Below are positions 1 through 54,876 of a stretch of DNA of 64,000 nucleotides, one piece after another. A program made the position numbers and the translations under genes. Each line of letters opens with the position of its first letter. The stretch's first letter is position 1. The notes beneath the pieces are model-generated. The model was given only the letters and a program-made list of their open reading frames with translations, searched no databases and was not told the origin of the DNA. The DNA is from an uncultured Verrucomicrobiae bacterium. GTDB taxonomy: Bacteria > Verrucomicrobiota > Verrucomicrobiia > Limisphaerales > UBA11358. The stretch spans positions 175,664 to 239,663 of the forward strand of contig CAVQGB010000005.1 in the NCBI GenBank assembly GCA_963711945.1, given 5' to 3'.

Positions 1-658
1 GAACGTTCAATGGGTGGCCGCCGGATTCGATCCGCGCGCGTTGCCAAAGTTGACTTAAGGCAACCCACATCATCGTTACATCTGAGTAAGCTTTGCAGGT
101 TTCGGGATCCGCTTTCGCGAAAGCGAAAGCCAAATAGCGGTCTTGGTTGACGGTGATCAAAGCGCTTGTGCCAATTGGAAAGCTTTTGGTTTTTCCATCC
201 GTTTTTTTGACTTCAGTCCCGGCAACTCCCCGGAGCTGTTCGTCCACTTGCCGGTCAAACGATTCCACGCCACCTCCGAAGCAATTTGTCAGGAAAGCAC
301 CATGCAAGCTTTTGTCCGATACTGGTTTTCCAAGCTTGCTGTCGAAAAATTCACTGACCGCAATTGCTCGGATGCCGTCCTGCTTGAAAAGATCGCCAAA
401 TATGACTTCGATTGTCGTGTTTGTGGTGGCAATTTTGATTTCAATCTTGGACGGCTTCCACACCTGTTTTAGTCCGTAGCAAAGGCTCACGATGATGACA
501 ACGGTGAGCGGAAGCATGCCCTCGATCTTAACGCCAGGCATAAAATGCGTCACACCCCGGATGATTGTGAACAGGACGCTGAAAGCCGTGAAGACATAAC
601 CTGCCGTCTTCCATGGGTGGCGAGTGATGCCGCGCAAAAGGTCTTTGAGGGATTGCAT
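1..658 (-). CDS. Hypothetical membrane-anchored (2-TM) protein, truncated by the window edge; cytosolic domain possibly Macro/SLOG-like
   Basis: Hand translation of the minus strand from ATG at 658: MQSLKDLLRGITRHPWKTAGYVFTAFSVLFTIIRGV...MLPLTVVIIVSLCYGL (two hydrophobic helices), then IEVIFGDLFKQDGIRAIAVSEFFDSKLGKPVSDKSLHGAF... The frame stays open to position 1. It is absent from the ORF track because it has no stop codon in the window. Confidence 0.5.
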   Translation of the reverse strand, partial: MQSLKDLLRGITRHPWKTAGYVFTAFSVLFTIIRGVTHFMPGVKIEGMLPLTVVIIVSLCYGLKQVWKPSKIEIKIATTNTTIEVIFGDLFKQDGIRAIAVSEFFDSKLGKPVSDKSLHGAFLTNCFGGGVESFDRQVDEQLRGVAGTEVKKTDGKTKSFPIGTSALITVNQDRYLAFAFAKADPETCKAYSDVTMMWVALSQLWQRARIESGGHPLNV

Positions 659-669
659 AGTCATGATGA

Positions 670-2196
670 TTATCTATGTGGCACGCGCAACTCGCCCGAC
701 AGCAGCTTCGGCAGCAGCGCGTCGCGCAGCGCAGCGAGCGTGCGGGATTCGTGGAGATTGGCGATCCATTTTGCGAATAACGGATGCACCGTTTTATCGA
801 ACTTCGCCAGAGTCGCGTCATCAGGAATCATCGTCGGAAAATCAGCGACGATTTGCTGGCTCAAATTCTGTTGCGCTGAACCTCGTGTTTGTTGTTCCAA
901 TGCAGCCACAGATGAGGCCATGTGCAAATAGATGAAATACCGCATTTCCTTTTTGGGAATTAGTCCGCAGCAAGCTTGGTTCGAGCACATGCCGTCGCCA
1001 AGAAAACAAACTTGTCCGGCTGTCGCACCATAAAGAGCTACGACTGTCGTTGCGGCAGGCCACAGCTTGGCGCTGCTGTTCGCAAGCCCTTCTTCGGAAA
1101 TATAATTCTCCGCCTTTGTTACGATGGCTTGTCGAACTTCGCCGGATGTGAGCCAAGGAATTGTGGCTGGTGTCCAGTAACGAGGTTCGTCGCGCTTTGG
1201 CGTGCCGCCATTTTCAACGCGCTCACAGCAATCGCGTAACTTGCCTTCGTGCCAGCTTTTGGGGAGGGCGGATTGGGTGGCGTCCACGAACCAGGATTTG
1301 AACAGGCTCTGGGCCAGCGCCTCCAGCGTCTCGTTCATCCGCCGGTTCAACTCAATCTTGTCGTCCAGCGCACCCAACACCGACGCAATCGCTCGTTGTT
1401 CTTTAATGTCCGGCTTTGGCACGTCAAAACTTTCAATCATGCCTTTGGTGAGCGCATTGCGTGTTGCACCTGCGCCTGCCAATGTCAGCATTTGCTCCTG
1501 CATTTGTGGCGAGACCAGAAAATAACGCAGAAAAGTTGGATTAATTTCGTCGGGGTCAGGCCGAATGATAGCAACGTGCTGATTGACGCGGGCGGGCAAA
1601 ACTTCTTTCGGAGCTTGGCAACAGCGAGCAACCGAATCGCCAGTGATGTTTAGAAGCACATCGCCGGCGGAAACTTCCACGTTGCTTAAATCATCCGCCT
1701 GCTCTTTGCTAATGAACGCCAAGCCGTGATTGGTGAATCGGTTGTTGTGGACATTTTGGCTGCGGATTAGCGAGAACGGTCCAGATTTAAGGTAGGTTTC
1801 ACCTCCACCGCGCGGTGTCGCACCGCTGCCAATTTTCTTGCACACGTTTCCAAGACGGATTGTTGGCCACTCGCTCCCGCTGGCGACAGCGTTTTTCCTT
1901 TCATAAAACACCCGCCCATATTTCTGAATGTGCTTTTCCACATCCGAGTTGGTGATTTTGGCACGGATGACGAGGTCGGCTTCAAAGGGCAACTCCAAAC
2001 TACCAATCCGTGACCGGACGACGACTAAATCAGCGAGGTTGAGGTCGTCTCCTTCGAGGGCAAGGTCAAGGTCAGATGCTCCGCGAAAAGTGCCGATAGC
2101 TCGCGAACCAAACAGAACCGCGCGCCTTATCTTCGGGAATGCCTCCAGCACTGAGAGGATTCCCTGCCTGTCGCGTTCTGTTAGTCCATCGGTCAC
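670..2196 (-). CDS. hsdS: Fusion protein: N-terminal MNT-type nucleotidyltransferase domain plus a complete Type I R-M specificity subunit (two target-recognition domains)
   Basis: 508-aa ORF. Residues 30-46, GSRAIGTFRGASDLDLA, match the GSx(9-10)DxD minimal NTase motif. Residues ~110-508 have HsdS architecture (LGNVCKKIGSGATP..., central helix DIKEQRAIASVLGALDDKIELNRRMNETLEALAQSLFKSWF, C-terminal LRDALLPKLLSGEL). The GTG start overlaps the upstream stop (GTGA at 2193-2196). Confidence 0.85.
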   Translation of the reverse strand: MTDGLTERDRQGILSVLEAFPKIRRAVLFGSRAIGTFRGASDLDLALEGDDLNLADLVVVRSRIGSLELPFEADLVIRAKITNSDVEKHIQKYGRVFYERKNAVASGSEWPTIRLGNVCKKIGSGATPRGGGETYLKSGPFSLIRSQNVHNNRFTNHGLAFISKEQADDLSNVEVSAGDVLLNITGDSVARCCQAPKEVLPARVNQHVAIIRPDPDEINPTFLRYFLVSPQMQEQMLTLAGAGATRNALTKGMIESFDVPKPDIKEQRAIASVLGALDDKIELNRRMNETLEALAQSLFKSWFVDATQSALPKSWHEGKLRDCCERVENGGTPKRDEPRYWTPATIPWLTSGEVRQAIVTKAENYISEEGLANSSAKLWPAATTVVALYGATAGQVCFLGDGMCSNQACCGLIPKKEMRYFIYLHMASSVAALEQQTRGSAQQNLSQQIVADFPTMIPDDATLAKFDKTVHPLFAKWIANLHESRTLAALRDALLPKLLSGELRVPHR

Positions 2197-2597
2197 GCGC
2201 CCTTGGCAAGTTTATTCAGCTTTTCCACACAGGCCCGGAGCATGGGTTCGAGCTTTTCTTTGATCAGCGCAATTGCCTGTTGGGCAATGTCATGTTCATA
2301 CGTGTGGCTGAAAAGATTCCGGCTTTCCAGCGCCTCAAGCCATTCATCTACATCGGTCAGCAATTCCATCTCGAACGCCTTGTTGATGGTTTCTCGCGGA
2401 CTATTGACGGCATAACCCTCAAACGTGAGTTTGTCCTTCAAAGTCTTCCAGCAAAGCTCAAACGTGAATTCGTAGGTCTGAACCAGTCCGGCGACTTCAA
2501 GTTCGTTGTATTCGTCCTGATCGCAGGCATCTTCCAGCCGCTTGAACGCCTTGTTCAGATTTTGCAGTCGTTGTATCCAGCGGTTTTCGTTGCTCAT
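2193..2597 (-). CDS. HEPN-domain protein (HI0074-like nucleotidyltransferase substrate-binding family), putative toxin partner of the MNT domain
   Basis: The internal ATG at 2597 of ORF 2193..2822 gives [24 protein letters not shown]...[12 protein letters not shown] (Rx4H HEPN motif). The ATGA overlap with the hsdM stop (2594-2597) supports this start. The upstream part of the tracked ORF is Arg-rich out-of-frame hsdM sequence. Confidence 0.8.
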
Positions 2598-4260
2598 GCT
2601 TTTCCTGGTTTGTTGTGCTCGCTGAGAGTAACCAAATTCTTCCGGATTGTCTTTTCCAGTTTCGCCGATTCCGCGAACTGTTCTTCCAGCGTCGCGGTGA
2701 GGCGTTTCATCTTTTGCTCGAACGGTTCGCCGTCGTCTTCCATGTCTGCCGCGCCCACATAACGACCGGGCGTGAGGACGTATCCATGCGTCTGGATTTC
2801 TTCGAGCTTCACAGATTTGCAAAAGCCGGGTTCGTCCTGGTAGGGCGCGTCACTCCGTGCGCGCCGCTCACTTGCTTGCCACCAGCGGCTGGCAGGACTG
2901 CCAGCCCTACCTGGTTTCCACGCATGGTAGCAGTCGGAAATTTTGGCAATTTCCTCGGCAGTCAGTTCCCGGTGGATGCGGTCAACCAGCACGCCCATTT
3001 TCCGCGCATCAATGAAAAGGGTTTCACCGCGCCGGTCGCGGCGTTTGTGGTTCTTTTTGTCGCGGGCCAGAAACCAGAGGCAGACGGGAATTTGCGTGGT
3101 GAAAAACAACTGGCCGGGCAGCGCGACCATGCAATCCACGAGGTCGGCTTCAATCAAGGCTTTGCGAATCTCGCCTTCGTTCGAGGTCTGCGTGGACATT
3201 GAACCGTTCGCCATGACGAATCCCGCCACGCCCACGGGCGAGAGGTGATGGATGAAATGTTGAATCCAGGCGTAGTTGGCGTTGTTCACCGGCGGCATCC
3301 CGAATTTCCAGCGCACGTCCTGCCGCAGGTTTTCGCCGCCCCAATCGCTCATGTTGAACGGCGGGTTGGCGAGAATGAAATCGGCCTTGAGGTCGGGATG
3401 CAAATCCGCCCGGAAGCTGTCGGCGTTGCGCGGGCCGAGATTGGCGTCAATGCCGCGAATGGCGAGGTTCATCCGCGCCAGTTTCCAGGTGGTGTAGTTG
3501 GATTCCTGCCCGTAAACCGCGATGTCGCCCACGCGTCCGCCGTGTTCTTCCACGAATTTTTCCGATTGACACGAACATGCCGCCCGAACCGCAGCACGGA
3601 TCGAACACGCGGCCTTTGTAGGGTTCAAGCATGGCGACGAGCACCTGCACGACGCATTGCGGGGTGTAGAACTCGCCGCCGCCCTTGCCTTCCGCGCTGG
3701 CGAACTTGCCGAGAAAGTATTCATAGACGCGCCCGAGCACGTCCTTGGATTTCGCCGCCGATTCGTTGAAGCCGATGTTGCTGATGATGTCCACGAGTCC
3801 GCCGAGCCGGACTTTGTCGAGGCTGGGCCGGGCGTAATCGCGCGGCAGCACGCCTTTGAGCGTGGGATTCTCGCGCTCAATCGCGCCCATCGCGTCGTCA
3901 ATGACCTTGCCAATCTCCGGCGACTTGGCCTTGGCCTTGATGGTGTGCCAGCGGGCTTCGGGCGGCAGCCAGAAGACATTCGCGGCCATGATATTCGTCG
4001 CGGTTCTCGGCGGCTTCGGCGCGTTGCGGTTCGTCTTTGATGAACCATTCGCTCTTGGGATCGGAGAAGCCGAACAGCAGTTGCTCGCGTTTTTCCTCGA
4101 AGGCGTCGGAGATGTATTTCAGGAAGATGAGGCCGAGGCAGACGTGCTTGTATTCCGAGGCGTCCATGTGCCCGCGCATCTTGTCGGCGGCGGCCCAAAG
4201 CTGGGCTTCAAAGTCGAGAGCGGAGCCGTTGGCGGTTTTCTGACTATTTCCCTTAGCCAT
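2594..4260 (-). pseudogene. hsdM: Type I R-M DNA methyltransferase subunit HsdM, interrupted by two frameshifts (near 3990 and near 3571)
   Basis: Three frame pieces join into one Hsd[57 protein letters not shown]... comes from ORF 3898..4260. [13 protein letters not shown]...[34 protein letters not shown] comes from ORF 3447..3989. [11 protein letters not shown]...[11 protein letters not shown]... comes from ORF 2594..4198. The SAM motif DPCCGSGG and catalytic NPPF are present. Confidence 0.85.
2839..2911. repeat. GC-rich palindromic repeat element inside the hsdM 3' region (GGTAGGG...CCCTACC termini)
   Basis: GGTAGGGCGCGTCACTCCGTGCGCGCCG ... GGCTGGCAGGACTGCCAGCCCTACC. The first 28 nt are identical to 10394-10421 in lpdA. 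There are two internal hairpins. It is translated in frame as ...[10 protein letters not shown]... Confidence 0.8.
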
Positions 4261-4353
4261 GATGGAAAGGGAGTGTGCGCCTGAAGGTCGTTCGCGTCAA
4301 TTCCTGCCTGTAGTTGGACAGCGGTTGTCCATGCACCGGAGTAAAATGCCGGG

Positions 4354-4575
4354 ATGAATGCCGCACGATGGTTCCAGCGCCGGGAAGATTATCAGCCGCC
4401 CCAAACGCCGGCAGACAGCCAGTTTCGGCGGTTCAAGGTGTCCTGTCTCAAATGCGGCAGTTTCAAGCTGCGGGTGATCGGCGAATTTGATTCGGATGCG
4501 GGCGAATTGAAGATTTACCTTTTCTGCCCGTCGTGTCGCGAGCGCGAACAAGTCCTTGCGGACTGCCACCATTAA
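4354..4575 (+). CDS. Small zinc-ribbon-like hypothetical protein
   Basis: 73-aa ORF with two CxxC pairs (CLKCGS...CPSCRE). No recognisable family. Confidence 0.4.
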   Translation: MNAARWFQRREDYQPPQTPADSQFRRFKVSCLKCGSFKLRVIGEFDSDAGELKIYLFCPSCREREQVLADCHH

Positions 4576-4598
4576 CAAAGTTCGGCCTGTTTGCCGCT

Positions 4599-4841
4599 TC
4601 AACGGTGAAGCGTCTGCGGACTTATGAAGGCACCGACAAGGATCACCACAAATCCAGCCAGTTGGAGAAAAAATGGTTTCTTGGCCTCGGACCAATGCAC
4701 GATCAGAAAAAATAGAGAGACAATGGGAAGGAACAGGCAGGCTAGCCCCCACCAGATACTTGTCCGGAAAGCGGCAACCAAGAACAACAAGCCACCAATA
4801 AGACAAATGATGACTCCCAAAAGAATAATCGCGGTTCCCAT
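4599..4841 (-). CDS. Small integral membrane protein (3 predicted helices)
   Basis: 80-aa ORF, MGTAIILLGVIICLIGGLLFLVAAFRTSIWWGLACLFLPIVSLFFLIVHW... The hydrophobic pattern is typical of small membrane proteins. Confidence 0.5.
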   Translation of the reverse strand: MGTAIILLGVIICLIGGLLFLVAAFRTSIWWGLACLFLPIVSLFFLIVHWSEAKKPFFLQLAGFVVILVGAFISPQTLHR

Positions 4842-5198
4842 ATTTTTAGTAGCCGTTTTTTGCAGGTTGAAGATTCAGGCCTTCGGTGTCAACGGGGAAT
4901 TCTATATTGGGGAATTCGGCGGAGTGACGAAACTTGGCTGCCGGAATGGAGCGGCAACCCGGGCGGAGTGAAGCGGTGTGCCGTTCGGTCGCGTGGGGGT
5001 CTTGGGGCAAGCCAGTCTTTCGGCTTACGGAGCCTTTTCCGTTAGCTGAAAGTCTGGCGCGGGGGCGGGTGCAAATTCATCGCGACGGAACGGGCACACA
5101 AGCGGAACGGAGGCCGGATTGACGCGGAATGCAGGCTGCCAAGTATGGTCACGACTTCGGGCGGGAAACGAAATTGCGCGTGCGGTGTTGAAATTATC

Positions 5199-6008
5199 AT
5201 GTCGGAAGAAGCGGAGAAAAAGTTAGCTGCCATAAGACCGGGTCGCAAGGAAACCGCGGCTCATCTAAAAAACGTAGAAGAAATTCAAATTGATACAGCA
5301 AAGCGTCGGCAAGATTGGTTAAAACGGTTGGCGAGCGAATATATCAAGCTTGAAACCAAGATGCCGGTAACAAATTTTCTACCCGACGAGTGTTGCCCGA
5401 AATGGGTTGAAAATATTGAACGAGAAGTGGGGGCGACCATGTTTCCAGTCGCGAAGCTCAAGGAAGAATTGAAACTCACCCCGCGACGCCTGGCAGCCAT
5501 TATCGGACATCAATGCGCGATAGCTGTTTGGCTGATGGAATGGGTTGAAAACCTTCTTGAAAAACCGCAACCCGTGGGGAATGCAAAATTAACGCCGGAG
5601 CAAATCAAACAAGGCGAAGAATTTTTGATTATGCTGGTTGATGGTTGGTATCCGGCTCTGCGACGGCTTGCAAAAAGGGCTTTGTGCTCGTGCATTGATC
5701 AGCCCTACGACGTTATGAAAGATTTTTTGCTGGCGTATGCAGATGCCTTTGCTCAAAAACCCACCGGGCGCGGCTTGGGCAGTTTTGGCAGTTCGGCCAT
5801 AGAGATTTACCACTTTATGCTGTTCCACTGGCGGATTGTTGAACGGCTAAATTCGGTTCACCATCTCCATGAGGTGCTGGTCAAGGTTTTTGGTCCATAT
5901 CGGACTGGCGACTTGAAACGAACGGAAAAAATTTGTCAAAGAATCGGTCTTCATTATCGTAAGCCGGGGCGTCCTCCGAAAATCGAAACAATTCAGACAC
6001 CCACCTAG
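5199..6008 (+). CDS. Hypothetical protein (element cargo), C-terminal basic HTH-like tail
   Basis: ORF 5145..6008; the likely start is MSEEAEKKLAAIRPG at 5199. It ends ...KICQRIGLHYRKPGRPPKIETIQTPT. GC is lower than the flanks. Confidence 0.5.
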   Translation: MSEEAEKKLAAIRPGRKETAAHLKNVEEIQIDTAKRRQDWLKRLASEYIKLETKMPVTNFLPDECCPKWVENIEREVGATMFPVAKLKEELKLTPRRLAAIIGHQCAIAVWLMEWVENLLEKPQPVGNAKLTPEQIKQGEEFLIMLVDGWYPALRRLAKRALCSCIDQPYDVMKDFLLAYADAFAQKPTGRGLGSFGSSAIEIYHFMLFHWRIVERLNSVHHLHEVLVKVFGPYRTGDLKRTEKICQRIGLHYRKPGRPPKIETIQTPT

Positions 6009-6192
6009 ACTGGCTGTCGGTATTACTACAGTTCGCGTTGTGGTTTATTCATGACGTGTGCGCAATTCTTCATCTGAATAATTCGTTGAACGTCGCAAGA
6101 CGTTTCAGCGGGCTTCGCCACGTTCATTTCCGCACGGTGCTCTGCCGGTCGCGCGGAATCGATCAACCGGCAGAATCGAAAGGACAACCAAA

Positions 6193-6480
6193 ATGGTAGT
6201 CAAACTGGAAGTATTCAAGACCGTCCACAACACGTGGCCGGCCAAAAACGGAATGGCAGCGGGCGAATCATACGACCTGCTGTGCATTGATGTCAGCAAT
6301 CCACCGGAACACCGGATGGAAGAGATGCTGTTCTACCGGACAAAACCGGAAGAACGCGAAGCCCACTACGTCAACGGCACGGGCAAAGTCATCACGGTTG
6401 GCGTTGCCAAGATTCGGCACGCGGACAAGGGCGGCAAAGCTACCATCATCGGGAGCATCATCCCGGAAGCCAAAAAGTAA
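6193..6480 (+). CDS. Hypothetical protein (element cargo)
   Basis: 95-aa ORF lying 7 nt upstream of the Rep gene on the same strand. No motif recognised. Confidence 0.4.
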   Translation: MVVKLEVFKTVHNTWPAKNGMAAGESYDLLCIDVSNPPEHRMEEMLFYRTKPEEREAHYVNGTGKVITVGVAKIRHADKGGKATIIGSIIPEAKK

Positions 6481-6486
6481 AAACTT

Positions 6487-7140
6487 ATGGCTAAAAATCC
6501 TCGGATAGACAGAGACTGGCGTGATCCGATCCGCAAATCCGAGGTCGCCACAGACTTTGGCATCACACTGGCAAGAATCCAGTGGGACCTTTTTGCAACG
6601 CCGACTTTTAAGGGCAACGTCCCTCGAACAAATATTTGTTACGGCATGGCGTTTCGCTGGTTGCAAGAATTGGCCAAAGTCTGTGGCGTGCCCTATAAGC
6701 GCCTTCTCATAGCACTGCGCGGTGAAGAAGGCGAAAAGAATGGGCGTTTCCACTTCCACTGTCTGGTGGGGGGAACTGCTACGCGCAACTATCACACGCT
6801 GCAACACCAGGCTGAACATCTGTGGAAGCATCAGACAGGTGGGGCGCGTGTAGATGTTCGACAATATGACCGCTCACTGGCCGGAGCGGAATACGTTGCG
6901 AAGTGCCTTGGGGCAAACGCATACGAGCTGAACAAATACAGCTTTGCGAACACGGTGACGCTGTCTGCATCTGTTATCCGGTTGATAGCGGGTATTGATG
7001 CGAGTGGAGACAGACGCTGCGGACAGGACACATGGAGAAACGGGCTGGTGACGAAAGCGACGGGGTTTAACCAGGTGGTTCCCGCTGTGAGTAAGCTTTG
7101 CGATGAGACAGCCTCCCAGATTGCGGGCATGGCGCATTGA
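6487..7140 (+). CDS. HUH-superfamily rolling-circle replication initiator (Rep)-like protein
   Basis: Three motifs appear in the canonical order: LFATPTFKG (motif I-like), GRFHFHCLVGG (HUH motif) and AEYVAKCLG (catalytic Tyr YxxK-like motif). Confidence 0.6.
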   Translation: MAKNPRIDRDWRDPIRKSEVATDFGITLARIQWDLFATPTFKGNVPRTNICYGMAFRWLQELAKVCGVPYKRLLIALRGEEGEKNGRFHFHCLVGGTATRNYHTLQHQAEHLWKHQTGGARVDVRQYDRSLAGAEYVAKCLGANAYELNKYSFANTVTLSASVIRLIAGIDASGDRRCGQDTWRNGLVTKATGFNQVVPAVSKLCDETASQIAGMAH

Positions 7141-7395
7141 TGCTGCTGGTTTACGGGGACAAGTTCCCTGCGGTGGCTAAAAGACAATTCGCCGACAATC
7201 CGCCTTGGATGCTGGGATAAAACGCCAAAGCTACTGTGGCGTGTGTCAAATGAACGGGATTCCTTTGACGGTGGAGCGGTGGGCGGGCGCGCCAGCGCCC
7301 GCCCGCCGCCCGCCGGCAAAGGCTCCTTGTAGAAATCCTATGCCCAGATGTGATGGCGAATTAACCCAAAACACTGGACGGATGCAGGCGAAGTT

Positions 7396-7737
7396 TTGAT
7401 GAGAGACGACCAACATCGGTTTTTGATGCTGCTGGGCCAGTTGCCGGCCCGCCTGACGGCGGAGCAGGCGGCTTGGGTGCTCAACTGCCAGCCGCATGAC
7501 GTGCCGGTGCTGGTCGCGGCGCGGCTGCTCAAGCCGTTGGGCAATCCTCAAGCCAATAGCACCAAGTTTTTCGCGACGACTGATTTGCTTGAACAAATCA
7601 AAGACCGCAATTGGCTGGTGCGGGTCTCCACCGCCATTTATCAGCACTGGCACAAACAAAATGCCCGCAAGAAAAGCCGTTTCCCGAACGGAACGGGAAA
7701 CGGCCAAACCGCGCTGCCGATGGCATCGGTTGGTTAA
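7396..7737 (+). CDS. Putative excisionase / HTH DNA-binding protein
   Basis: 113-aa ORF containing LTAEQAAWVLNCQPHDVPVLVAARLLKPLG (HTH-like). It converges on and overlaps the integrase 3' end by 4 nt. Confidence 0.45.
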   Translation: MMRDDQHRFLMLLGQLPARLTAEQAAWVLNCQPHDVPVLVAARLLKPLGNPQANSTKFFATTDLLEQIKDRNWLVRVSTAIYQHWHKQNARKKSRFPNGTGNGQTALPMASVG

Positions 7738-8768
7738 GCGGCGGAGAATTGCATCGGCACGACGTTGGAAGCCGTCGCCATTTTGCTTTCAAAATCTTCA
7801 AGGGCTGGAATCAACACCTTTGCCTTCCGCGCATAAGCCCGATGCACCGCTTTGCTATTGTGGCCCAGCGCCTCCTGCGCGAAGCGTTCGGGATAGCCGC
7901 AAGTCTTGGCGCGTTCCGCCCACGCGTAGCGGTAGGAGTGAAGCGAAACCCCGGAGACGCCGACGAGACGGCAGCGTCGGATGAACGCCTTGGCCCGGTC
8001 GGATTCCTTCCACTGGACGACTTGCGGGAACAAGCAGCCCGTCGTCGGACGCCGCTCAAGAATCTTCACGACGGCCTCGCCAATGCGGATTATGGCTTGT
8101 GTGCCTGTTTTCATACGGGCATAGGAGATTGTCCGGTCGGTCCAATCTACATCCTCGGCGCGCAACGAAGCCATGTCGGTCTGCGAGCCGCCCAAGTGCC
8201 AGAGCAGTTCGTAGAAGTCGCGCACTTCGAGGTTTCGCTCGCCGGCCATAATTTTCTGGTGTTCCTCCCAAGTGATGCCGCGCTTGTCTTTGAAGTGGAT
8301 GGCGGGCCAGCGCTTCCGGGCCAGCACCGGCCACGGCAGCCACGACATGTCGAGGGCGAAGTTTTGCACCCGGCGCAAAAAGATGTTGCTGCAAACCGTG
8401 CCAGTCTCCAGCACGCGCATGAAGTGTTCTGGGCGGGTTTCCAAGACGGGTAAACCGCGAATCGCATCGAATGCCTTGTCGCGCATGGCTGTCCGCCAGC
8501 GAATCAGGGTCGGCCCCTGTTTCAGTGTGGCCGCCTCCTCCATGACGTGCTGCCAGGTGCGGGCGGCGATCTGCGGGTCGCTGGCTGCGAGATAGGCGCG
8601 GGCGATTTGCAGGTTGATGGCGGGCTGCCTTTCCGCCTCGTTCTTGGCGTTAAGGAATCGCCCAGCCTCTGCCCGGTCACGGGTGTGGAGGCTGGATTGC
8701 TTGCCGGTGGTCGTGTCTTCGCAATAGAAGATTTCACCGCGTTTAAACAGGATGAACCGTTGTCTCAT
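7734..8768 (-). CDS. int: Tyrosine recombinase / phage-type integrase
   Basis: 344 aa. The C-terminal catalytic region is ...LHSYRYAWAERAK...ALGHNSKAVHRAYAR (H-x-x-R ... Y). It lies adjacent to the tRNA 3' end. Confidence 0.9.
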   Translation of the reverse strand: MRQRFILFKRGEIFYCEDTTTGKQSSLHTRDRAEAGRFLNAKNEAERQPAINLQIARAYLAASDPQIAARTWQHVMEEAATLKQGPTLIRWRTAMRDKAFDAIRGLPVLETRPEHFMRVLETGTVCSNIFLRRVQNFALDMSWLPWPVLARKRWPAIHFKDKRGITWEEHQKIMAGERNLEVRDFYELLWHLGGSQTDMASLRAEDVDWTDRTISYARMKTGTQAIIRIGEAVVKILERRPTTGCLFPQVVQWKESDRAKAFIRRCRLVGVSGVSLHSYRYAWAERAKTCGYPERFAQEALGHNSKAVHRAYARKAKVLIPALEDFESKMATASNVVPMQFSAA

Positions 8769-8883
8769 GTTGATGCCTTTCGGTTCTGAATGGTGAACCT
8801 GTGCGGCATCGTCGCGTTAGCCAGTAGTGGGCAAGTATCAGCAAATTCTAACGAATGGTGGCCGGTAGCTTTGGCGGTCACGG

Positions 8884-8906
8884 TTTCACTGACACTTTCA
8901 CTGACA
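8884..8906. repeat. Tandem direct repeat TTTCACTGACA x2 between int and the tRNA (candidate arm-type recombinase site)
   Basis: gTTTCACTGACAcTTTCACTGACAg is read directly. It lies about 50 nt from the tRNA 3' end. Confidence 0.5.
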
Positions 8907-8954
8907 GTTGGCCTTCGCGTTCCCGTAACCTGTTGGAAAATCCCCACTTGGAAA

Positions 8955-9029
8955 TGGAGCCAATGGCCGGGATTGAACCGGCGACCGACGGTTTACGAAA
9001 CCGTTGCTCTACCGCTGAGCTACATTGGC
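8955..9029 (-). tRNA. tRNA-Thr (anticodon CGU)
   Basis: Minus strand folded by hand: GCCAATG TA GCTC AGCGGTA GAGC A ACGGT TTCGTAA ACCGT CGGTC GCCGG TTCAATC CCGGC CATTGGC T CCA. All four stems pair, the CCA is encoded, and the anticodon loop is TT-CGT-AA. Confidence 0.9.
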
Positions 9030-9334
9030 TTGACCCGCCGTTACTCCGGCGTTTTCATGGTTGGCTGGATTTTATTGTCTGCAATTGCATTCGTGCAACA
9101 TTCCGCAAAACCGCGCGAAATCATGACAACTCAAACGCCAACCGCGCCAGTGTGTATAGCCGCACACAGCGCGCCGGTCAAGTCAACTGTGACCGATGCT
9201 TTTCGGCTTCTATTGTTGATCCTGTAAACCGACGCGCGAAGTTCGCGGTCGAATCGGAGTGTTGCGCCACCACGAACGACTCTGGCCCGCCATCGTCGAA
9301 CGCCAGCCCGTATGAGCTTTCAACCCATTTGCGG

Positions 9335-18163: not shown

Positions 18164-18706
18164 ATGAGCGCCATGAATCCGGGCGAACATCCAGCTTCCA
18201 CGTCTGGCGCGGAAACGAAGACGCCTCCGAACACGGCTTTTCGGTCCGGGGCGAAAGTGATTCCGCCGTTGATTTACGCCATCCTGTTCGGAATCGGCAT
18301 CCTCATGCAACACTTCCTTCCGTTGGCACGGACGGCGTTGACGGGAACGATCGCCCGGTTTATGGGGACGCTGTTCATGAGTGCCTCAGCAATCCTGGCG
18401 GGATGGAGCTTTGCCAGTTTTTGGCACGCCCGCACCAGTCTGCTGCCGGTTCAACCGAGCAGGGCGCTGGTAACGACCGGTCCTTACCGTATTATTCGCA
18501 ATCCAATGTATGCCAGCCTTGCCTGCCTGCACGCCGGGCTGGCGATCTGGCTTGACGTTTTTTGGGCGCTGCTCTTTTTGCCCGCCGTAATCGTGCTGGT
18601 CCAGCGCCTTGTCATTGCAGGCGAAGAGCGTTACCTGGAGCAGAAATTCGGAGACGAATACCGCCGCTACAAAACGCGCGTGCCCCGCTGGATTCCGCGC
18701 ATCTGA
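18164..18706 (+). CDS. Isoprenylcysteine carboxyl methyltransferase (ICMT)-family / phospholipid methyltransferase-like membrane protein
   Basis: Multi-TM protein with C-terminal TTGPYRIIRNPMYASL...GEERYLEQKFGDEYRRYKTRVPRWIP. Confidence 0.8.
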   Translation: MSAMNPGEHPASTSGAETKTPPNTAFRSGAKVIPPLIYAILFGIGILMQHFLPLARTALTGTIARFMGTLFMSASAILAGWSFASFWHARTSLLPVQPSRALVTTGPYRIIRNPMYASLACLHAGLAIWLDVFWALLFLPAVIVLVQRLVIAGEERYLEQKFGDEYRRYKTRVPRWIPRI

Positions 18707-18773
18707 CAAAGCAACCGTTCCCGCCGCCAAATTGGCTGTTCAAAATCGCGCCGACAAATTATCCTGCCGCATC

Positions 18774-19890
18774 ATGGCTGACAAAGTTCCCTATCTTGAT
18801 CTGCCCGCGCAAATCCGCGGCATCCGCAAGGAAATTGACGCCGCCATCGCGCGGACGATTGACCACTGCTCGTTCTGCCTCGGGCCGGACGTAGCGCAAT
18901 TTGAAAAAGACTTCGCCCGGTTCATCGGCGCGGAACATTGCGTCGCCTTCAACAGCGGCACGTCCGCGCTGCACGTCGCCCTGCTGCTGCTCGGCGTCGG
19001 GCCGGGCGACGAAGTCGTCACCACGCCTTTCACCTTTGTGGCGACGAGCTGGGCGATTTCCTACGTTGGCGCGAAACCGGTCTACGTGGACGTGGACGAC
19101 GCCACGATGAATCTCGACCCGAAGCTGCTTGAACGCGCCATCACCCCGCGCACCAAGGCAGTCCTGCCGGTGCATCTTTACGGCCATCCGTTTGATCTCG
19201 ATCCGATTCTGGCCATTTGCAGGAAACACAAACTGCCGCTCGTCGAAGACGCCTGCCAGGCGCACGGCGCGAAATACAAGGGCAAAACCGTCGGCGCTGC
19301 CGGCGACATTTCCTGCTTCAGCTTTTATCCCGGCAAAAATCTCGGCGCATGCGGCGAAGGCGGCGCGCTGGTGACGAACAACGCCTCGTTTGCCGCGCGC
19401 GCCCGCTCGTTGCGCGAACACGGCTCGACCGTGCGCTATTACCACGACGAAGTCGGATTCAATTACCGGATGGAGGGCATTCAAGGCGCGGTGCTGGGCG
19501 TGAAGCTGCCGCACCTGCAAAAATGGACGGACGCGCGCCGCCGCGTGGCGCATCGCTACAACGAACTGCTGCGCGACACGCCGCTGCAACTGCCGCAGCG
19601 AAGCCGGTTACGCGGAAAGCGCCTGCCATCTTTACGTCGTGCGCCATCCGCGCCGCGACGAACTCAAAAAACATCTGGACGACAACGGCGTCGGCTGCGC
19701 GCTGCATTATCCGCTGCCGCTGCACCTGCAAAAGTGCTACGCGAACCTCGGCCACAAGCCGGGCGATTTTCCGGTCGCCGAAAAGGCCGCGCGCGAATGT
19801 TTGAGCCTGCCGATTTATCCCGAATTGACCGACGCGCAAATCCGGCGCGTGGCGGAGGTCATCAAGGGCTTTTTTGCCGCAGTCGGCTGA
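18774..19890 (+). pseudogene. DegT/DnrJ/EryC1/StrS-family PLP aminotransferase with one frameshift near 19599
   Basis: MADKVPYLDLPAQIRGIRKEIDAAI...FSFYPGKNLGACGEGGALV... (ORF 18609..19991, ATG at 18774) continues in ORF 19639..19890 as EAGYAESACHLYVVRHPRRDELKKHL...IYPELTD. One extra base lies in CCGCAG-C-GAAGCC. Confidence 0.85.
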
Positions 19891-20035
19891 TCGTCCTGAT
19901 GCGTCGAGAGCAAAGGCGGACAGTTCGCTTCGCACTCAACTGTCTCTTCAGGTTGAAACCGAATTGCCGCCACTTGAAGCTTGCCATGTGAATCACGCCA
20001 GTGGCAACTTGCCTGTTTTCAACCCATAAATCCGC

Positions 20036-42577: not shown

Positions 42578-42820
42578 TCATTCGATTTCCAGTTTGTAAT
42601 CTTCGATCACCGGGTTGCTCAAAAACTTGTGCGCCGCGTCGTTCAACGCCTGCTGCGCGGCGGCCTTGTCCGCGCCGGGCGCGAGGTCAATCTCGATGTA
42701 TTTGCCGATGTGGACGCCGGTGACGCCGCGTGTAGCCCATTTGTTCGAGGGCGTTCTGGACGGTTTTGCCCTGCGGATCAAGCACGGCCTTCTTGGGGTG
42801 ATGATAATTTTTGCTTTCAT
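42578..42820 (-). pseudogene. purS: PurS (FGAM synthase small subunit) with an apparent compensating frameshift pair
   Basis: The ORF is open (80 aa), but residues ~9-33 (PRRPCLIRRAKPSRTPSNKWATRGV) do not look like PurS. The adjacent frame reads PKKAVLDPQGKTVQNALEQMGYT, the conserved PurS segment. The ends MKAKIIIT and GVHIGKYIEIDL...NPVIEDYKLEIE fit PurS. Confidence 0.75.
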
Positions 42821-42927
42821 TCGCGCGCACGGAAGATTGCAAAAAATTCCGCCGCCGGGCGAGCAATTTTTGATTTTCCGCGCAACGAGCGTTGAATTTG
42901 CCCGCCGCTTGCGCCATTGTTCTGGTC

Positions 42928-44485
42928 ATGGCTGACACCAAACAAGCCGAGGAAACACCGGGCAACGGCATCGGCGCGGAACGCAAGGCGCCGGAACCCT
43001 GCACCATCGTCATCTTCGGCGCGAGCGGCGATCTGACGGCGCGCAAGCTGATTCCCGCGCTTTACCATCTGTTCAAGGACAAGCAGATGCCGCCGGCATT
43101 CCGCATCGTCGGCTTTGCGCGGCGCGAAAAGACCGACGAATCGTGGCGGCAGGAATTGCGCGCGGCGCTCGACCAGTTTTCCCGCACCAAACCCGTGGAC
43201 GAAAAGGTCTGGAAGGAATTCGCCGCGAACATGTTTTATTGCCAGGGCGACCTCACCGACGCCGCGGCCTACAAAAAACTGGAGGAACTGCTGACCTCGT
43301 TCGGCAGCGGGCCGTTGCGGGAAAACCTGCTGTTTTATCTCGCCACGCAGCCGAGCCAGTTCGGCCAGGTCGTCGAGGAACTGCATCGCGCCGGCGCTGC
43401 TGCACAAGGAGGGCGCCGGCTGGCAGCGCATCGTCGTCGAGAAACCGTTCGGCCACGACCTCGCCTCCGCGCACGCGCTGAACAACGAACTGACCCGCTA
43501 CGCCCACGAAAGCCAGGTCTGCCGCATTGACCATTATCTCGGCAAGGAAACGGTGCAGAACATTTTGATGTTCCGCTTTTCCAATTCGATTTTCGAGCGG
43601 CTCTGGAACCGCGAATCCGTGGACCACGTCCAGATCACCGTCAGCGAAAAACTCGGCGTCGGCGAGCGCGGCGGTTATTACGAGGAGGCCGGCGCGCTGC
43701 GCGACATGGTGCAAAACCACATGCTGCAGGTGCTTTCGCTCATCGCCATGGAACCGCCCGTGTCGCTCGAAGCCGAATCCGTCCGCGACGAAAAGGTGAA
43801 GCTGCTCAAATCCATCCGCCCGCTCACGCCGGACGATGTCGCCAAACAGGTCGTGCGCGGACAATACTTCGCCGGCGTCGTGAACGGCCAGCCGCGCCCC
43901 GGCTACCGGCAGGAGACCAAGGTGAAACCGGATTCCAACGTCGAAACCTACGTCGCGCTGAAGCTCTTCATTGACAACTGGCGCTGGAGCGGCGTGCCGT
44001 TTTATTTGCGCACCGGCAAAAATCTGCCGATGAGCGCCAGCGAAGTGCGGATTCAATTCCGTCCCACGCCGAACGTCCTGTTCGCCGCGCAATGCGGACA
44101 ACACCTTGACGCCAACGCGCTCACGCTGCGCCTGCAGCCGAACGAAGGCATTTCCCTGCGCTTCAACGGCAAGGTTCCCGGCATGAGCCTCGGCGTGCGG
44201 CCCGTGCGGATGCACTTCAGCTACGACGCCGAGTTCGGCGCCTACACGCCGGAAGCCTACGAACGCCTGCTGCTCGAAGCCATCGCCGGCGACGCGACGC
44301 TCTTCATCCGCCGCGACGAAGTGGAAACCGCGTGGCAGATCGTGGACTCCATCCGCGCCGGCTGGGACGGCAAGCCGCTGACGAACCGCGAATTTTACGC
44401 CGCCGGAACGTGGGGGCCGATTGCCGCCGACGATTTGCTCGCGCAACTCGGCCACGCCTGGCACGAGCCGCAGGTGATAAAATAA
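42928..44485 (+). pseudogene. zwf: Glucose-6-phosphate 1-dehydrogenase with one frameshift near 43396
   Basis: VIFGASGDLTARKLIPALY (NADP motif) lies in ORF 42892..43530. LLHKEGAGWQRIVVEKPFGHDL...RIDHYLGKE...EPP... continues in the frame of ORF 43553..44485. One extra G lies in GCCGGC-G-CTGCTG. Confidence 0.9.
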
Positions 44486-45621: not shown

Positions 45622-46631
45622 ATGAAACATCAGCTCGATTTCGAGAAGCCGATCATCGAACTGCAAAACAAGCTGGATGAACTGCGCGAGCACCCGGAAA
45701 AACATTCGCTGGGCATCAGCTTCGAGGAGGAAATCCAGCTCATCGAAAAAAAACTGGAGGAAACCCGGCGGCAGATTTTCTCGAACCTCACCGCCTGGCA
45801 GCGCGTCCAGCTCGCGCGCCATCCCAAACGGCCTTACACGCTGGATTACTTCAAGCAGGCCTTCACGGATTTTCAGGAATTGCACGGCGACCGGCTGTTT
45901 GCCGAGGACCGCGCGATGGTCGGCGGTTTTGCCAAACTGGGCGAACACCGCGTCATGGTCATCGGCACGCAAAAAGGCCGCGACACCAAGGAAAACATTT
46001 TGCGCAATTTCGGCTCCGCGCATCCCGAAGGCTACCGCAAGGCGCTGCGCCTGATGCGGCTCGCGAACAAATTCGGCCTGCCCATCATCACGCTCATTGA
46101 CACGGCGGGCGCGTATCCCGGCGTCGGCGCGGAGGAACGCCACATCGCCGAGGCCATCGCCGTCAATCTGCGCGAAATGACGCTGCTCGAAGTGCCCATC
46201 ATCGCCGCCGTCATCGGCGAAGGCGGTTCCGGCGGCGCGCTCGGCATCGGCGTGGCCGACCGCGTTTTGATTTTGGAGAACGCCTATTATTCCGTCATCA
46301 GCCCGGAAGGCTGCGCGGCGATTTTGTGGAAAGACCGCGCCAACGCCGCCAAGGCCGCCGCCGCGCTGAAAATCACCGCCAAGGATTTGCTCGAACTCAA
46401 ACTCGTGGACGAAATCGTGCCCGAACCGCTCGGCGGCGCGCACACCGATCCCGACGGCGACCGCCGCGAATTTGAAAACGCATCTGCTCAAGCATCTCGA
46501 AGAAATCCTCGCGCTGCCGGTCGCCGAACGGTTGAAACAGCGTTACGAAAAATTCCGCGCGCACGGGCATTTCATCGAAAAAGTCGAGCCGGCCGGAAAC
46601 GACCGCCGTTCCGCACGCCGCCGCCGCCTGA
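45622..46631 (+). pseudogene. accA: Acetyl-CoA carboxylase carboxyltransferase alpha subunit, frameshifted near 46456 (3' end uncertain)
   Basis: [21 protein letters not shown]...[12 protein letters not shown]...[20 protein letters not shown]...GGAHTDPD. The sequence then continues in another frame as [39 protein letters not shown]. Confidence 0.9.
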
Positions 46632-52870: not shown

Positions 52871-54876
52871 ATGACCGAACTGGAGCGCATCCGGCATTCC
52901 GCCGCGCACGTCATGGCCACCGCCATTCTGCGCCTGTGGCCGGACGCGCAATTCGCCGCCGGGCCGCCGGTCGAGAACGGCTTTTACTACGACGTGGACT
53001 TGCAGCACCGCATCTCGCCGGAGGATTTCCCGACCATCGAGGCCGAGATGAAAAAGGAGATCAAGGCGAACCACACCTTCGAGAAAATCGTCGTCACGCG
53101 CGAGCAGGCGCTGAAGGATTCGCGAGAGCGGACGGCTCGGCGGCCTGACCGAGCGGCCGGGCAATCCGAGCAAGTTCAAGATCGGCAACCTCGAAGCCAT
53201 TCCCGAAGGCGAGCCGATCACCTATTTCAAGAACGGCGATTTCATTGACCTCTGCGCCGGGCCGCACGTGATGCGCACCGGCAACATCGGCGCGTTCAAG
53301 CTCACCAGCGTGGCCAGCGCGTATTACAAGGGCGACGAGAACAACCCGCAGCTCCAGCGCATCTACGGCACGGCGTTCAAGAACAAGACCGAGCTGGACG
53401 AGTATTTCAAGATGCTCGAGGAGGCCAAGCGCCGCGACCATCGCAAGATCGGCCAGGAGATGGGGCTGTTCGCGATTGACACCGAATACATCGGGCCGGG
53501 CCTGCCGCTGTGGCTGCCCAAAGGCACGGCCATCGTCGAGGAACTGGAAAAGCTGGCGAAGGAAACGGAATTCGCCGCCGGCTACGTGCGCGTGAAAACG
53601 CCGCACATCGCGCAAGGAGAAAATGTATCTAACGTCCGGCCATCTGCCGATTCTTTACGCGGAATCAATGTTTCCGCCGATGAGGCTACAGTTTGAAGGA
53701 AAGGACAAAGCCGAGAGACAATGCGCTTGAAACTGGCCAAAGACGAATACGAAAAGAATTGGATATCAGGTTACTTAGATTCCGCGACAACTGATGACCG
53801 AACGATTTTCAGAATCAAGAAGCTTGCTAACAACGCGAAGTCATACAAGACAGCAGCTTGCCCGAGACGAAGTCTTGGCAAGGCCGAGAAAGATCTCGAG
53901 GCAGAGCGCTATTACCTCAAAGCCATGAACTGCCCGCATCATCACCGCATTTTTGCGGCGGAGCCGCGCAGTTACCGCGATCTGCCGTTGCGGCTGGCCG
54001 AATACGGCACCTGCTACCGCTACGAGCAGTCGGGCGAATTGTTCGGCCTCATGCGCGTCCGCTCGCTCAACATGAACGACGCGCACATCTATTGCACGCC
54101 GGAGCAGTTCGCCGCCGAGTTCAACGCCGTCAACGAAATGTATCTGAAGTATTTCAAGATTTTCGGCATCGAGAAATACGTGATGCGCTTCAGCACGCAC
54201 GACCCGTCGCGCCTGACCGGCGACAAGCAAATTCGTCAACGAACCGGAATTGTGGAAGCAGACGGAGGACATGGTCCGCAAGGTTTTGATTGATTCGAAG
54301 ATTCCCTACGTCGAGGTGCCGAACGAGGCGGCGTTTTACGGGCCGAAGATTGACGTGCAGGTCTGGAGCGTCATCGGCCGCGAATTCACGCTGGCGACGA
54401 ACCAGGTGGACTTCGCCGTGCCGCGAAAATTCGGCCTGGTCTATCGCGACAAGGACAACACGGACAAGACGCCGCTGTGCATCCATCGCGCGCCGCTGGG
54501 CACGCACGAGCGGTTCATCGGCTTCCTCATCGAGCATTACGCCGGCAATTTCCCGCTCTGGCTCGCGCCGGAGCAGGTGCGCGTGCTGACCATCGGCGAG
54601 GAGGAGCCGCTGGTGAATTACGCCAAGGCCATCGTGCAGCGAACTGCGCGCCAACATGGTCCGCTGCCGAAGCGATTTCACGCACGAACAAGATCAACGG
54701 CAAGATTCAGGAAGCCGAGCAGGCGAAAGTCCACACCATGCTGGTCATCGGCGGCCGCGACATGGACGCCGGGAACGTTTCCGTGCGTCTGCACGGCAAA
54801 GGCAACCTCGGCGCGAAGCCGAAGGGCGAAGTCGTGGCGGACATTCTGGCGAGCGATCAAAGAGCGAAGAAAATGA
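52871..54876 (+). pseudogene. thrS: Threonyl-tRNA synthetase (no TGS domain), with about 5 single-base frameshifts plus a 173-nt insertion
   Basis: MTELERIRHSAAHVMATAILRLWP...GFYYD (editing domain), ...DLCAGPHV..., ...DHRKIGQEMGLF..., MNCPHHHRIFAAEPRSYRDLPLRLAEYGTCYRYEQSGELFGLMRVRS (class II motifs), and ...HRAPLGTHERFIGFLIEHYAGNFPLWLAP... The pieces are spread over ORFs 52811..53248, 53268..53696, 53721..54293, 54250..54876 and 54477..54905. Confidence 0.9.
53707..53889 (+). mobile_element. 173-nt low-GC insertion in thrS bounded by a 10-nt direct repeat (AAAGCCGAGA / AAGGCCGAGA)
   Basis: The direct repeats lie at 53707-53716 and 53880-53889. Deleting 53707-53879 joins ...GGA AAG GAC | AAG GCC GAG AAA... 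and restores MFPPMRLQFEGKDKAEKDLEAERYYLKAMNCPHHH in one frame. Confidence 0.45.

Follow-up and report, generated by a model that had tools for sequence, protein, structure and literature searches.

A minimal nucleotidyltransferase domain fused to the specificity subunit HsdS beside a HEPN gene in a Type I restriction-modification operon of an uncultured Verrucomicrobiae bacterium

The window analyzed in this study, a 64,000-nt stretch of contig CAVQGB010000005.1 from an uncultured Verrucomicrobiae bacterium (assembly GCA_963711945.1, positions 175,664 to 239,663), encodes on its minus strand part of a Type I restriction-modification (R-M) operon in which a HEPN gene lies between hsdM and hsdS and a minimal nucleotidyltransferase (MNT) domain forms the N-terminus of the specificity subunit HsdS. 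We hold with moderate confidence that this operon, of the order hsdM-HEPN-MNT::hsdS-(cargo)-hsdR, has a type VII toxin-antitoxin pair of the lpg2920/lpg2921 kind built into it, with the MNT domain on HsdS acting as the enzymatic antitoxin. The domain identities, the conservation of catalytic residues, the synteny and the recurrence of the architecture on which this reading draws were observed directly. The initial annotation of this DNA had already placed a HEPN/MNT toxin-antitoxin-type pair between hsdM and hsdS, which was borne out by domain scans. Homologues of the AccA protein encoded in the window assign the organism to Verrucomicrobiota (Verrucomicrobiia/Limisphaerales). The coordinates of all features are compiled in Table 1.

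The N-terminal ~100 aa of the 508-aa fusion protein, previously proposed to be a nucleotidyltransferase, were confirmed as such in a hidden Markov model scan, matching Polbeta (PF18765, 1e-11, aa 13-101) as well as NTP_transf_2 (PF01909, 1.8e-6), both of which pass the gathering scores. The same protein matched Methylase_S (PF01420, 5.3e-30) in two stretches, and its HsdS part was recognized by PADLOC as a Type I specificity subunit (Specificity_I, 3.4e-112). An AlphaFold2 model of the fusion, built on 114 homologues, reached a mean predicted local distance difference test (pLDDT) score of 95.3 and consisted of two confident domains with a five-residue flexible linker between them, only residues 103-107 within KNAVASGS falling below 50. 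In the HsdS part of this model long helices span residues 264-304 and 460-500, and a Foldseek search matched the C-terminal 400 residues to the HsdS structure 1yf2 (2e-28, 420 columns). Domain scans, AlphaFold model and structure searches thus agree with the earlier claim that the MNT domain is covalently fused to a complete HsdS with two target recognition domains (TRDs). The nearest HsdS bodies, those of P0002-P0004, are 81-83% identical to the HsdS part, unfused, and encoded in plain hsdM-hsdS operons. For HsdM, the closest solved structure to the intact protein of the near-identical relative L091 was 3khk (9.4e-148).

Within the MNT domain, GSRAIGTFRGASDLD corresponds to the GSX10DXD motif (G30, S31, D42 and D44), with D74 as the third aspartate, and all five of these residues were invariant in 58 homologues. 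Among solved and biochemically characterized proteins, the best matches were to the MNT of Legionella pneumophila, both in sequence (PDB 8xeh_E, 5.3e-16) and in structure (Foldseek, 8xeo, TM-score 0.96, root mean square deviation ~1 Å). The end of the free Legionella MNT (...GILFYTKE) aligns to the boundary between MNT domain and linker in the window protein (...GRVFYERK-NAVASGS), and because the free protein ends exactly at the linker position this type of MNT tolerates C-terminal fusion.

The HEPN protein matched NTase_sub_bind (PF08780, 5.7e-33) and TIGR01987 (HI0074 family, 1.4e-25) and belongs to a 23-member cluster at a sequence identity of at least 90%. Its RNLFSH motif (R93-H98) is followed by T and Y100, giving RX4HXY, and Q40 and E43 are present as well. 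When aligned to the L. pneumophila HEPN toxin (PDB 8xdj, 1.3e-18), Y100 corresponds to the AMPylated Y105, R93 and H98 fall onto the RX4HXY motif, and Q40 and E43 onto the metal site Q44/E47. The RX4HXY motif was retained in all 15 of the HEPN partners of fused proteins that were examined.

The PF08780 HEPN gene and the MNT::HsdS gene are adjacent, co-oriented and translationally coupled through their GTGA overlap. This overlap and the ATGA overlap between hsdM and the HEPN gene were read from the sequence as initially annotated, and ATGA-type 4-nt overlaps at the hsdM/HEPN boundary were also found in the relatives L001, L090 and L091-L094. The GTG start of the fusion is backed by the N-terminal residues MTDGL, which are kept in homologues that are only 36-44% identical; among distant homologues G4 is invariant and L5 occurs in at least 90%. 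As a candidate internal start for a free HsdS, the sole in-frame start near the junction, a GTG at V96, was rejected since it lacks a properly spaced ribosome-binding site.

To determine the distribution of the fusion, the MNT domain alone was searched exhaustively against 1.84 billion cluster representatives and the best 150 matches were considered; this search, together with a genome scan, replaced a word-indexed homologue search with the same query that had returned only 6 proteins. Among the best 150 representative clusters, 47 combined Polbeta with Methylase_S by Pfam (48 by our own HsdS profile) and 87 were free proteins of no more than 145 aa. Conversely, 34 of the best 120 HsdS homologues carried an N-terminal MNT domain, with several sequence subtypes represented and two proteins having a double MNT. 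The genome scan, with one genome per GTDB species, yielded 80 loci of this MNT clade, 12 of which were fused to HsdS, 6 were unfused inside Type I operons and 62 were free-standing pairs. The 12 fused loci are spread over eight phyla (Acidobacteriota, Thermodesulfobacteriota, Verrucomicrobiota, Latescibacterota, Chloroflexota, Patescibacteria, Pseudomonadota and Myxococcota), and the fusion is not unique to the window, whose copy is an ordinary member of this class.

The MNT domains of P0077, P0097 and P0127 are 79-95% identical while their TRDs are quite different, so the MNT-HsdS junction has been kept during TRD exchange. In a neighbor-joining tree built from 211 MNT domains, the fused forms are interspersed with the unfused ones (39 state changes versus a mean of 53 for shuffled labels), a pattern in keeping with fusion and fission having occurred repeatedly. 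In L040 (8001-9809), L100 (7001-8980), P0069, P0163 and P0265, HsdS is preceded by two tandem MNT domains that differ in subtype, and the two double-MNT loci that were inspected have a single HEPN gene upstream. Among close MNT representatives (P0127-P0275), one is fused to Abi_2 (AbiD/F-type HEPN) and one to DUF1016_N, while in P0233 the MNT domain is located at the C-terminus.

The gene order around the fusion proved to be conserved. In all six fused homologues for which contigs were retrieved, a PF08780 HEPN gene lies directly upstream, overlapping by 4-17 nt or, in P0077, separated by a gap of ~40 nt as called, and hsdM follows further upstream in all six. The six represent three or more MNT subtypes and include one protein with a double MNT, and hsdR or fragments of it are found downstream after variable cargo. 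The 12 fused GTDB loci gave a similar count, with a recognizable HEPN gene upstream in 10, hsdM upstream in 12 and a downstream match to hsdR in 10, or in 8 at a stricter E-value cut-off; loci without a strict hsdR match are located on short contigs or match only weakly. An unfused version of the same order, hsdM-HEPN-MNT(125 aa)-hsdS-...-hsdR, is present in L008 and is an intermediate form.

Three features of the locus had been singled out as unusual in the initial annotation, and the comparison with related loci changes this picture. Neither the HEPN-first order nor the tight coupling is exceptional: HEPN lies upstream of MNT in 65 of the 80 related loci and downstream in 2, and overlaps of 4 nt occur more often in the clade than any other arrangement (40/65), free-standing pairs included. 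The fusion itself is common (47 of the best 150 clusters and 12 of the 80 loci), and a search of open-access papers and bioRxiv turned up none that describes or characterizes an MNT antitoxin domain on HsdS. The refuting condition set out initially, a common and already characterized architecture, therefore holds only in part. The parts, Type I R-M and type VII HEPN/MNT, are known, as are toxins nested in R-M loci, and it is the MNT-HsdS fusion that is apparently uncharacterized. Database entries for the MNT::HsdS proteins carry only the name 'restriction endonuclease subunit S'.

AMPylation, toxicity and the biological trigger are the parts of the scheme that we infer here. The ~100-aa MNT at the N-terminus of HsdS would be the enzymatic antitoxin of the HEPN protein and would use ATP to (poly)AMPylate Tyr100 in the RX4HXY loop, rendering the toxin inactive. 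As MNTs of this type are without the long C-terminal helix found in other MntA proteins and end where HsdS begins, loss of a stop codon could have produced a working fusion, apparently many times. The supply of antitoxin would then equal the supply of S subunit, and the antitoxin would be carried on the M2S or R2M2S complex. If synthesis or integrity of the S complex failed, as might follow from shut-off by a phage, from an attack on restriction or from operon loss, or if ATP fell, newly made HEPN would remain unmodified and RNA would presumably be cut, resulting in abortive infection behind restriction or in addiction to the operon. As had been suggested initially, HEPN neutralization may reasonably be expected to depend on how much S subunit there is or on whether it is intact. 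An RNA-targeting toxin would in this way be linked physically, and in a concrete and testable manner, to an immune complex that targets DNA.

More tentatively, the HEPN protein could be a built-in PrrC-like guard of the Type I complex, AMPylated on the intact complex and accumulating in unmodified form to abort infection when a phage blocks or depletes that complex, a role that we consider rather unlikely. DNA-mimic anti-restriction proteins in the HsdS groove, Stp-like peptides or host shut-off might act as the block. If true, a type VII pair would have given rise to a PrrC-like 'restriction guardian' in at least eight phyla. Toxin genes cluster with R-M, CRISPR and other immune loci, which has led to the hypothesis of a coupling between immunity and suicide or dormancy, and such loci seem to be without antitoxins according to a review of the subject (PMC3632139). 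Here a predicted antitoxin is present, covalently within the DNA-recognition subunit and recurring over many phyla, and a guard of this kind would be a direct physical instance of immunity-suicide coupling with the antitoxin on the immunity protein itself.

Several observations weigh against an HsdS-borne antitoxin that neutralizes a HEPN toxin. Among the fused loci, L023 is too tightly packed to hold a HEPN gene and L066 has no recognizable one in an unassigned gap of 1.2 kb, so the fusion can persist without the toxin. The MNT domain scored 34.9 bits against a cut-off of 60 for the NCBIfam MntA_antitoxin equivalog NF047752; it belongs to the shorter L. pneumophila-type clade and is no equivalog of the S. 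oneidensis-type MntA. None of the models in PADLOC v2.0.0 matches the HEPN protein, and because of this the toxin-antitoxin layer is probably missed by defense-system annotation. The neighbor-joining tree is built on ~100 residues and weakly resolved. The L. pneumophila study disputes RX4HXY as the catalytic site and proposes the Q44/E47 metal site in its place (PMC11586414), which leaves the RNase mechanism unsettled. Furthermore, toxicity, AMPylation and the link to phage defense are all deduced for every fused member.

A rather unlikely alternative is that the HEPN-MNT pair is a selfish addiction cassette at the hsdM/hsdS junction that stabilizes the locus or island with no cross-talk with restriction, the fusion having arisen neutrally, or almost so, when overlapping genes lost a stop codon. 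The 62 of 80 related loci that are free-standing HEPN-MNT pairs outside an R-M context fit this view, as do the interleaving of fused and unfused forms on the tree and the position of the window locus next to an integrase/tRNA-Thr element with a G+C content below that of the backbone. In the unfused locus L008, the free MNT ends in ...ESAKLEKAIKANLKGLGYGG (7150-7226), which nearly repeats the C-terminal tail of HsdM from the same locus (...ESAKLEKAIRTNLKGIGYAM). This duplicated tail, located in the region of HsdM that contacts HsdS in Type I structures, appears to be a trace of the insertion of a HEPN-MNT cassette at the 3' end of hsdM and likewise fits this view. On the other hand, of the 80 loci, all from one MNT clade, the 18 that occur in Type I operons are always positioned between hsdM and hsdS, MNTs of several subtypes are fused alike, and the fusion has been kept while TRDs were swapped (P0077, P0097 and P0127 versus P0001), which looks selected rather than accidental.

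It is improbable that the two proteins are no toxin-antitoxin pair at all and that HEPN, as the substrate-binding subunit, forms with MNT a two-part nucleotidyltransferase that modifies HsdM/HsdR, DNA or a small molecule and thereby regulates restriction. The historical annotation of the HI0073/HI0074 family (TIGR01987) reads this way, tethering to HsdS would put the enzyme beside HsdM, HsdR and DNA, and some fused loci such as L023 lack HEPN. However, the closest characterized homologues are a toxin and an AMPylating antitoxin (PMC11586414, PMC7641770), and the AMPylated tyrosine as well as the RNase-type residues are kept in each of the 15 partners examined, in line with the toxin-antitoxin reading preferred here.

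The quality of the assembly bears on whether the fusion is genuine. Compared to the intact hsdM of L001 (96% nucleotide identity), hsdM in the window contains an extra A at 3989 and an extra T at 3569. Four other genes of the window are frameshifted too: accA (45622-46579), in which tblastn moves from frame 1 to frame 2 at ~46450, thrS (53115-54873), with the tRNA-synt_2b profile divided into 53697-54290 and 54217-54873, purS, divided between 42690-43061 and 42581-42925, and a DegT-family aminotransferase gene, divided between 18591-19988 and 19504-19887. The genes accA, thrS and purS are normally essential; therefore they are not all pseudogenes and the assembly carries indel errors, at a load of about one per 10 kb. 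Any inference from frameshifts anywhere in the window is unsafe. In the sister contigs L089 and L090 hsdR is divided at differing places, and it is intact in L001. The proposal that the locus may be decaying is not supported by these findings: with the same kind of frameshift in essential genes of the window, pseudogenization of hsdM was rejected as the preferred reading, hsdM is intact in close relatives, and its frameshifts are probably assembly errors.

With such an error rate, essential genes included, it might be argued that an indel also created the fusion and that MNT and hsdS are in truth two genes, an artifact that we dismiss as exceedingly improbable: the independent contig P0005 from another metagenome has the identical junction (ERKDAVASGREWPTIRLGNVCKKIGSGATPRGGGETYL; ERKDAVASGREWPTIRLGNVC...), the short-read MEGAHIT assemblies L093 and L094 and dozens of genomes encode the MNT::HsdS architecture, the AlphaFold2 model is confident over both domains, and neither a stop codon nor a plausible internal start backed by a ribosome-binding site occurs near the junction.

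A segment of hsdM in the window (2836-2914, minus strand) is in frame and 51 nt longer than in L001, encoding 26 aa versus 9 aa, and is flanked by 11-bp inverted repeats (CCAGGTAGGGC...GCCCTACCAGG). No second copy of this segment was found within the window, and its folding did not differ significantly from that of shuffled sequences (z = -1.6).

No hsdR was found within the 64-kb window, as noted in the initial annotation; the absence is a window-edge effect. It is uninformative because the operon leaves the window at the left edge 670 nt after hsdS, and in relatives hsdR is located 0-5 kb downstream of hsdS, behind variable cargo genes. The ThsA-like gene that follows hsdS and is cut by the window edge is probably cargo between hsdS and an hsdR beyond the window, and may be part of a Thoeris-like system nested there. 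Its product has a hydrophobic N-terminal segment and a ThsA-type Macro domain. In relatives the gap between hsdS and hsdR is a hotspot for cargo (L001 3799-6453, L005 9630-12261, L098 8694-9554, L099 8676-11278 and L100 8977-11162), which includes NOV_C with DUF3644 (a HEPN family) and DUF3800, YopA, HicB/PIN, a trypsin-like protease, DUF2806, TPR proteins and transposases. A promoter and terminator scan of positions 1-5200 gave matches at or near chance level and was uninformative.

On its upstream side hsdM is adjoined by an integrative-element-like block (4300-9029) with several small open reading frames (ORFs), in addition to the genes listed in Table 1. The G+C content of positions 1 to ~7000 is below that of the backbone, and no att-type direct repeat of the 3' end of tRNA-Thr was detected within positions 1-9100. 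In close relatives the hsdM-HEPN-MNT::hsdS block lies beside unrelated genes (cytochrome oxidase genes or a BON-domain gene), and because of this the block is evidently mobile.

Table 1. Features of the R-M operon and its surroundings in the window
Feature	Position	Strand	Basis or remark
ThsA-like gene with Macro domain, downstream of hsdS, cut by window edge	1..664	-	PF20016 ThsA_Macro 1.6e-31; PADLOC ThsA1 1.6e-93
HsdS part, aa 109-508: TRD1, central helix, TRD2, C-terminal helix	670..1872	-	Methylase_S, two stretches
Linker KNAVASGS, aa 101-108, MNT to HsdS	1873..1896	-	low-pLDDT segment of AlphaFold2 model
MNT domain, aa 1-101 of fusion	1894..2196	-	PF18765
MNT::HsdS fusion ORF, 508 aa, GTG start	2196→670	-	domain scans, AlphaFold2, Foldseek
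HEPN stop/MNT::HsdS start overlap GTGA	2193..2196	-	read from sequence
HEPN gene, 134 aa, HI0074/NTase_sub_bind family, predicted RNase toxin	2597→2193	-	PF08780, TIGR01987
hsdM stop/HEPN start overlap ATGA	2594..2597	-	read from sequence
hsdM, Type I methyltransferase subunit	4260→2594	-	read in three frames; pieces match HsdM_N and N6_Mtase
Rep-like gene	6487-7140		weak REP_ORF2-G2P match
Tyrosine-integrase-like ORF (candidate)	7734-8768	-	named from sequence and position only
tRNA-Thr(CGT)	8955-9029	-	

Both halves of the pair in the window have their best sequence and structure match in the L. pneumophila HEPN-MNT pair (8xdj, 8xeh and 8xeo). The genes lpg2920/lpg2921 of this pair overlap by 8 bp and encode a 108-aa MNT without the C-terminal α4 helix, which poly-AMPylates Tyr105 of HEPN with ATP and Mg2+ and thereby blocks the RNA-binding cleft (PMC11586414). 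Common to this pair and the one in the window are RX4HXY with the acceptor tyrosine, the Q/E metal site, a short MNT (~100-108 aa), GSX10DXD, the lack of α4 and overlapping genes. In contrast, the L. pneumophila MNT is a free protein of 108 aa, whereas the MNT in the window is the N-terminal domain of HsdS in a Type I operon, and the two are ~32-33% identical over the aligned domain. The word "restriction" does not occur in the text of the L. pneumophila paper (PMC11586414). With respect to type VII, where the antitoxin is small and free-standing, the MNT described here makes up residues 1-101 of a 508-aa fusion. The HEPN/MNT pairs of Shewanella oneidensis (HepT/MntA) and Aphanizomenon flos-aquae share the chemistry proposed here, in that MNT oligo-AMPylates a tyrosine near the Rx4H motif of a HEPN RNase (PMC7641770, PMC4621449). 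Their MNTs differ from that of the window in being 139-150 aa long, in requiring the α4 helix for neutralization and in the order MNT then HEPN.

Precedent for an MNT antitoxin within a fusion is provided by FhepTA, the fused MNT-HEPN of Shewanella (PMC13000451), whose fusion partner is its own toxin and not an immunity protein. A chain named 'Cmr1-MntA' in PDB 9z7q/9z7v/9z7x, known to us by its molecule name, matched the MNT domain weakly (E 0.004), and we found no paper on it; should this be a CRISPR type III subunit with an MNT attached, it would parallel the present case in having an antitoxin domain on an immune complex. Toxin-antitoxin or defense modules nested in Type I operons, as seen here, are represented by DarTG2 in the RptR island of enteropathogenic Escherichia coli (EPEC; PMC12255303) and by the cargo described as 'guilt-by-embedding' (bioRxiv 10.1101/2024.01.29.577857). 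Unlike the MNT in the window, these are separate genes between hsdS and hsdR, none of them fused to an R-M subunit.

Another HEPN-superfamily RNase encoded inside a Type I R-M operon is the anticodon nuclease PrrC of EcoprrI, which belongs to a Type IC R-M locus, is kept latent by association with the R-M complex and is freed upon phage attack on the complex (PMC3632139, PMC12707154). It differs in that PrrC contains an ABC-ATPase N-domain but lacks an MNT, is encoded between hsdS and hsdR, and owes its latency to binding and not to a fused modifying enzyme. The HEPN protein in the window consists of a single PF08780 domain over its 134 aa and lacks the ABC-ATPase N-terminal domain of the PrrC/RloC type; by analogy, it is possibly a functional analogue of the PrrC/RloC nucleases and not a member of their family.

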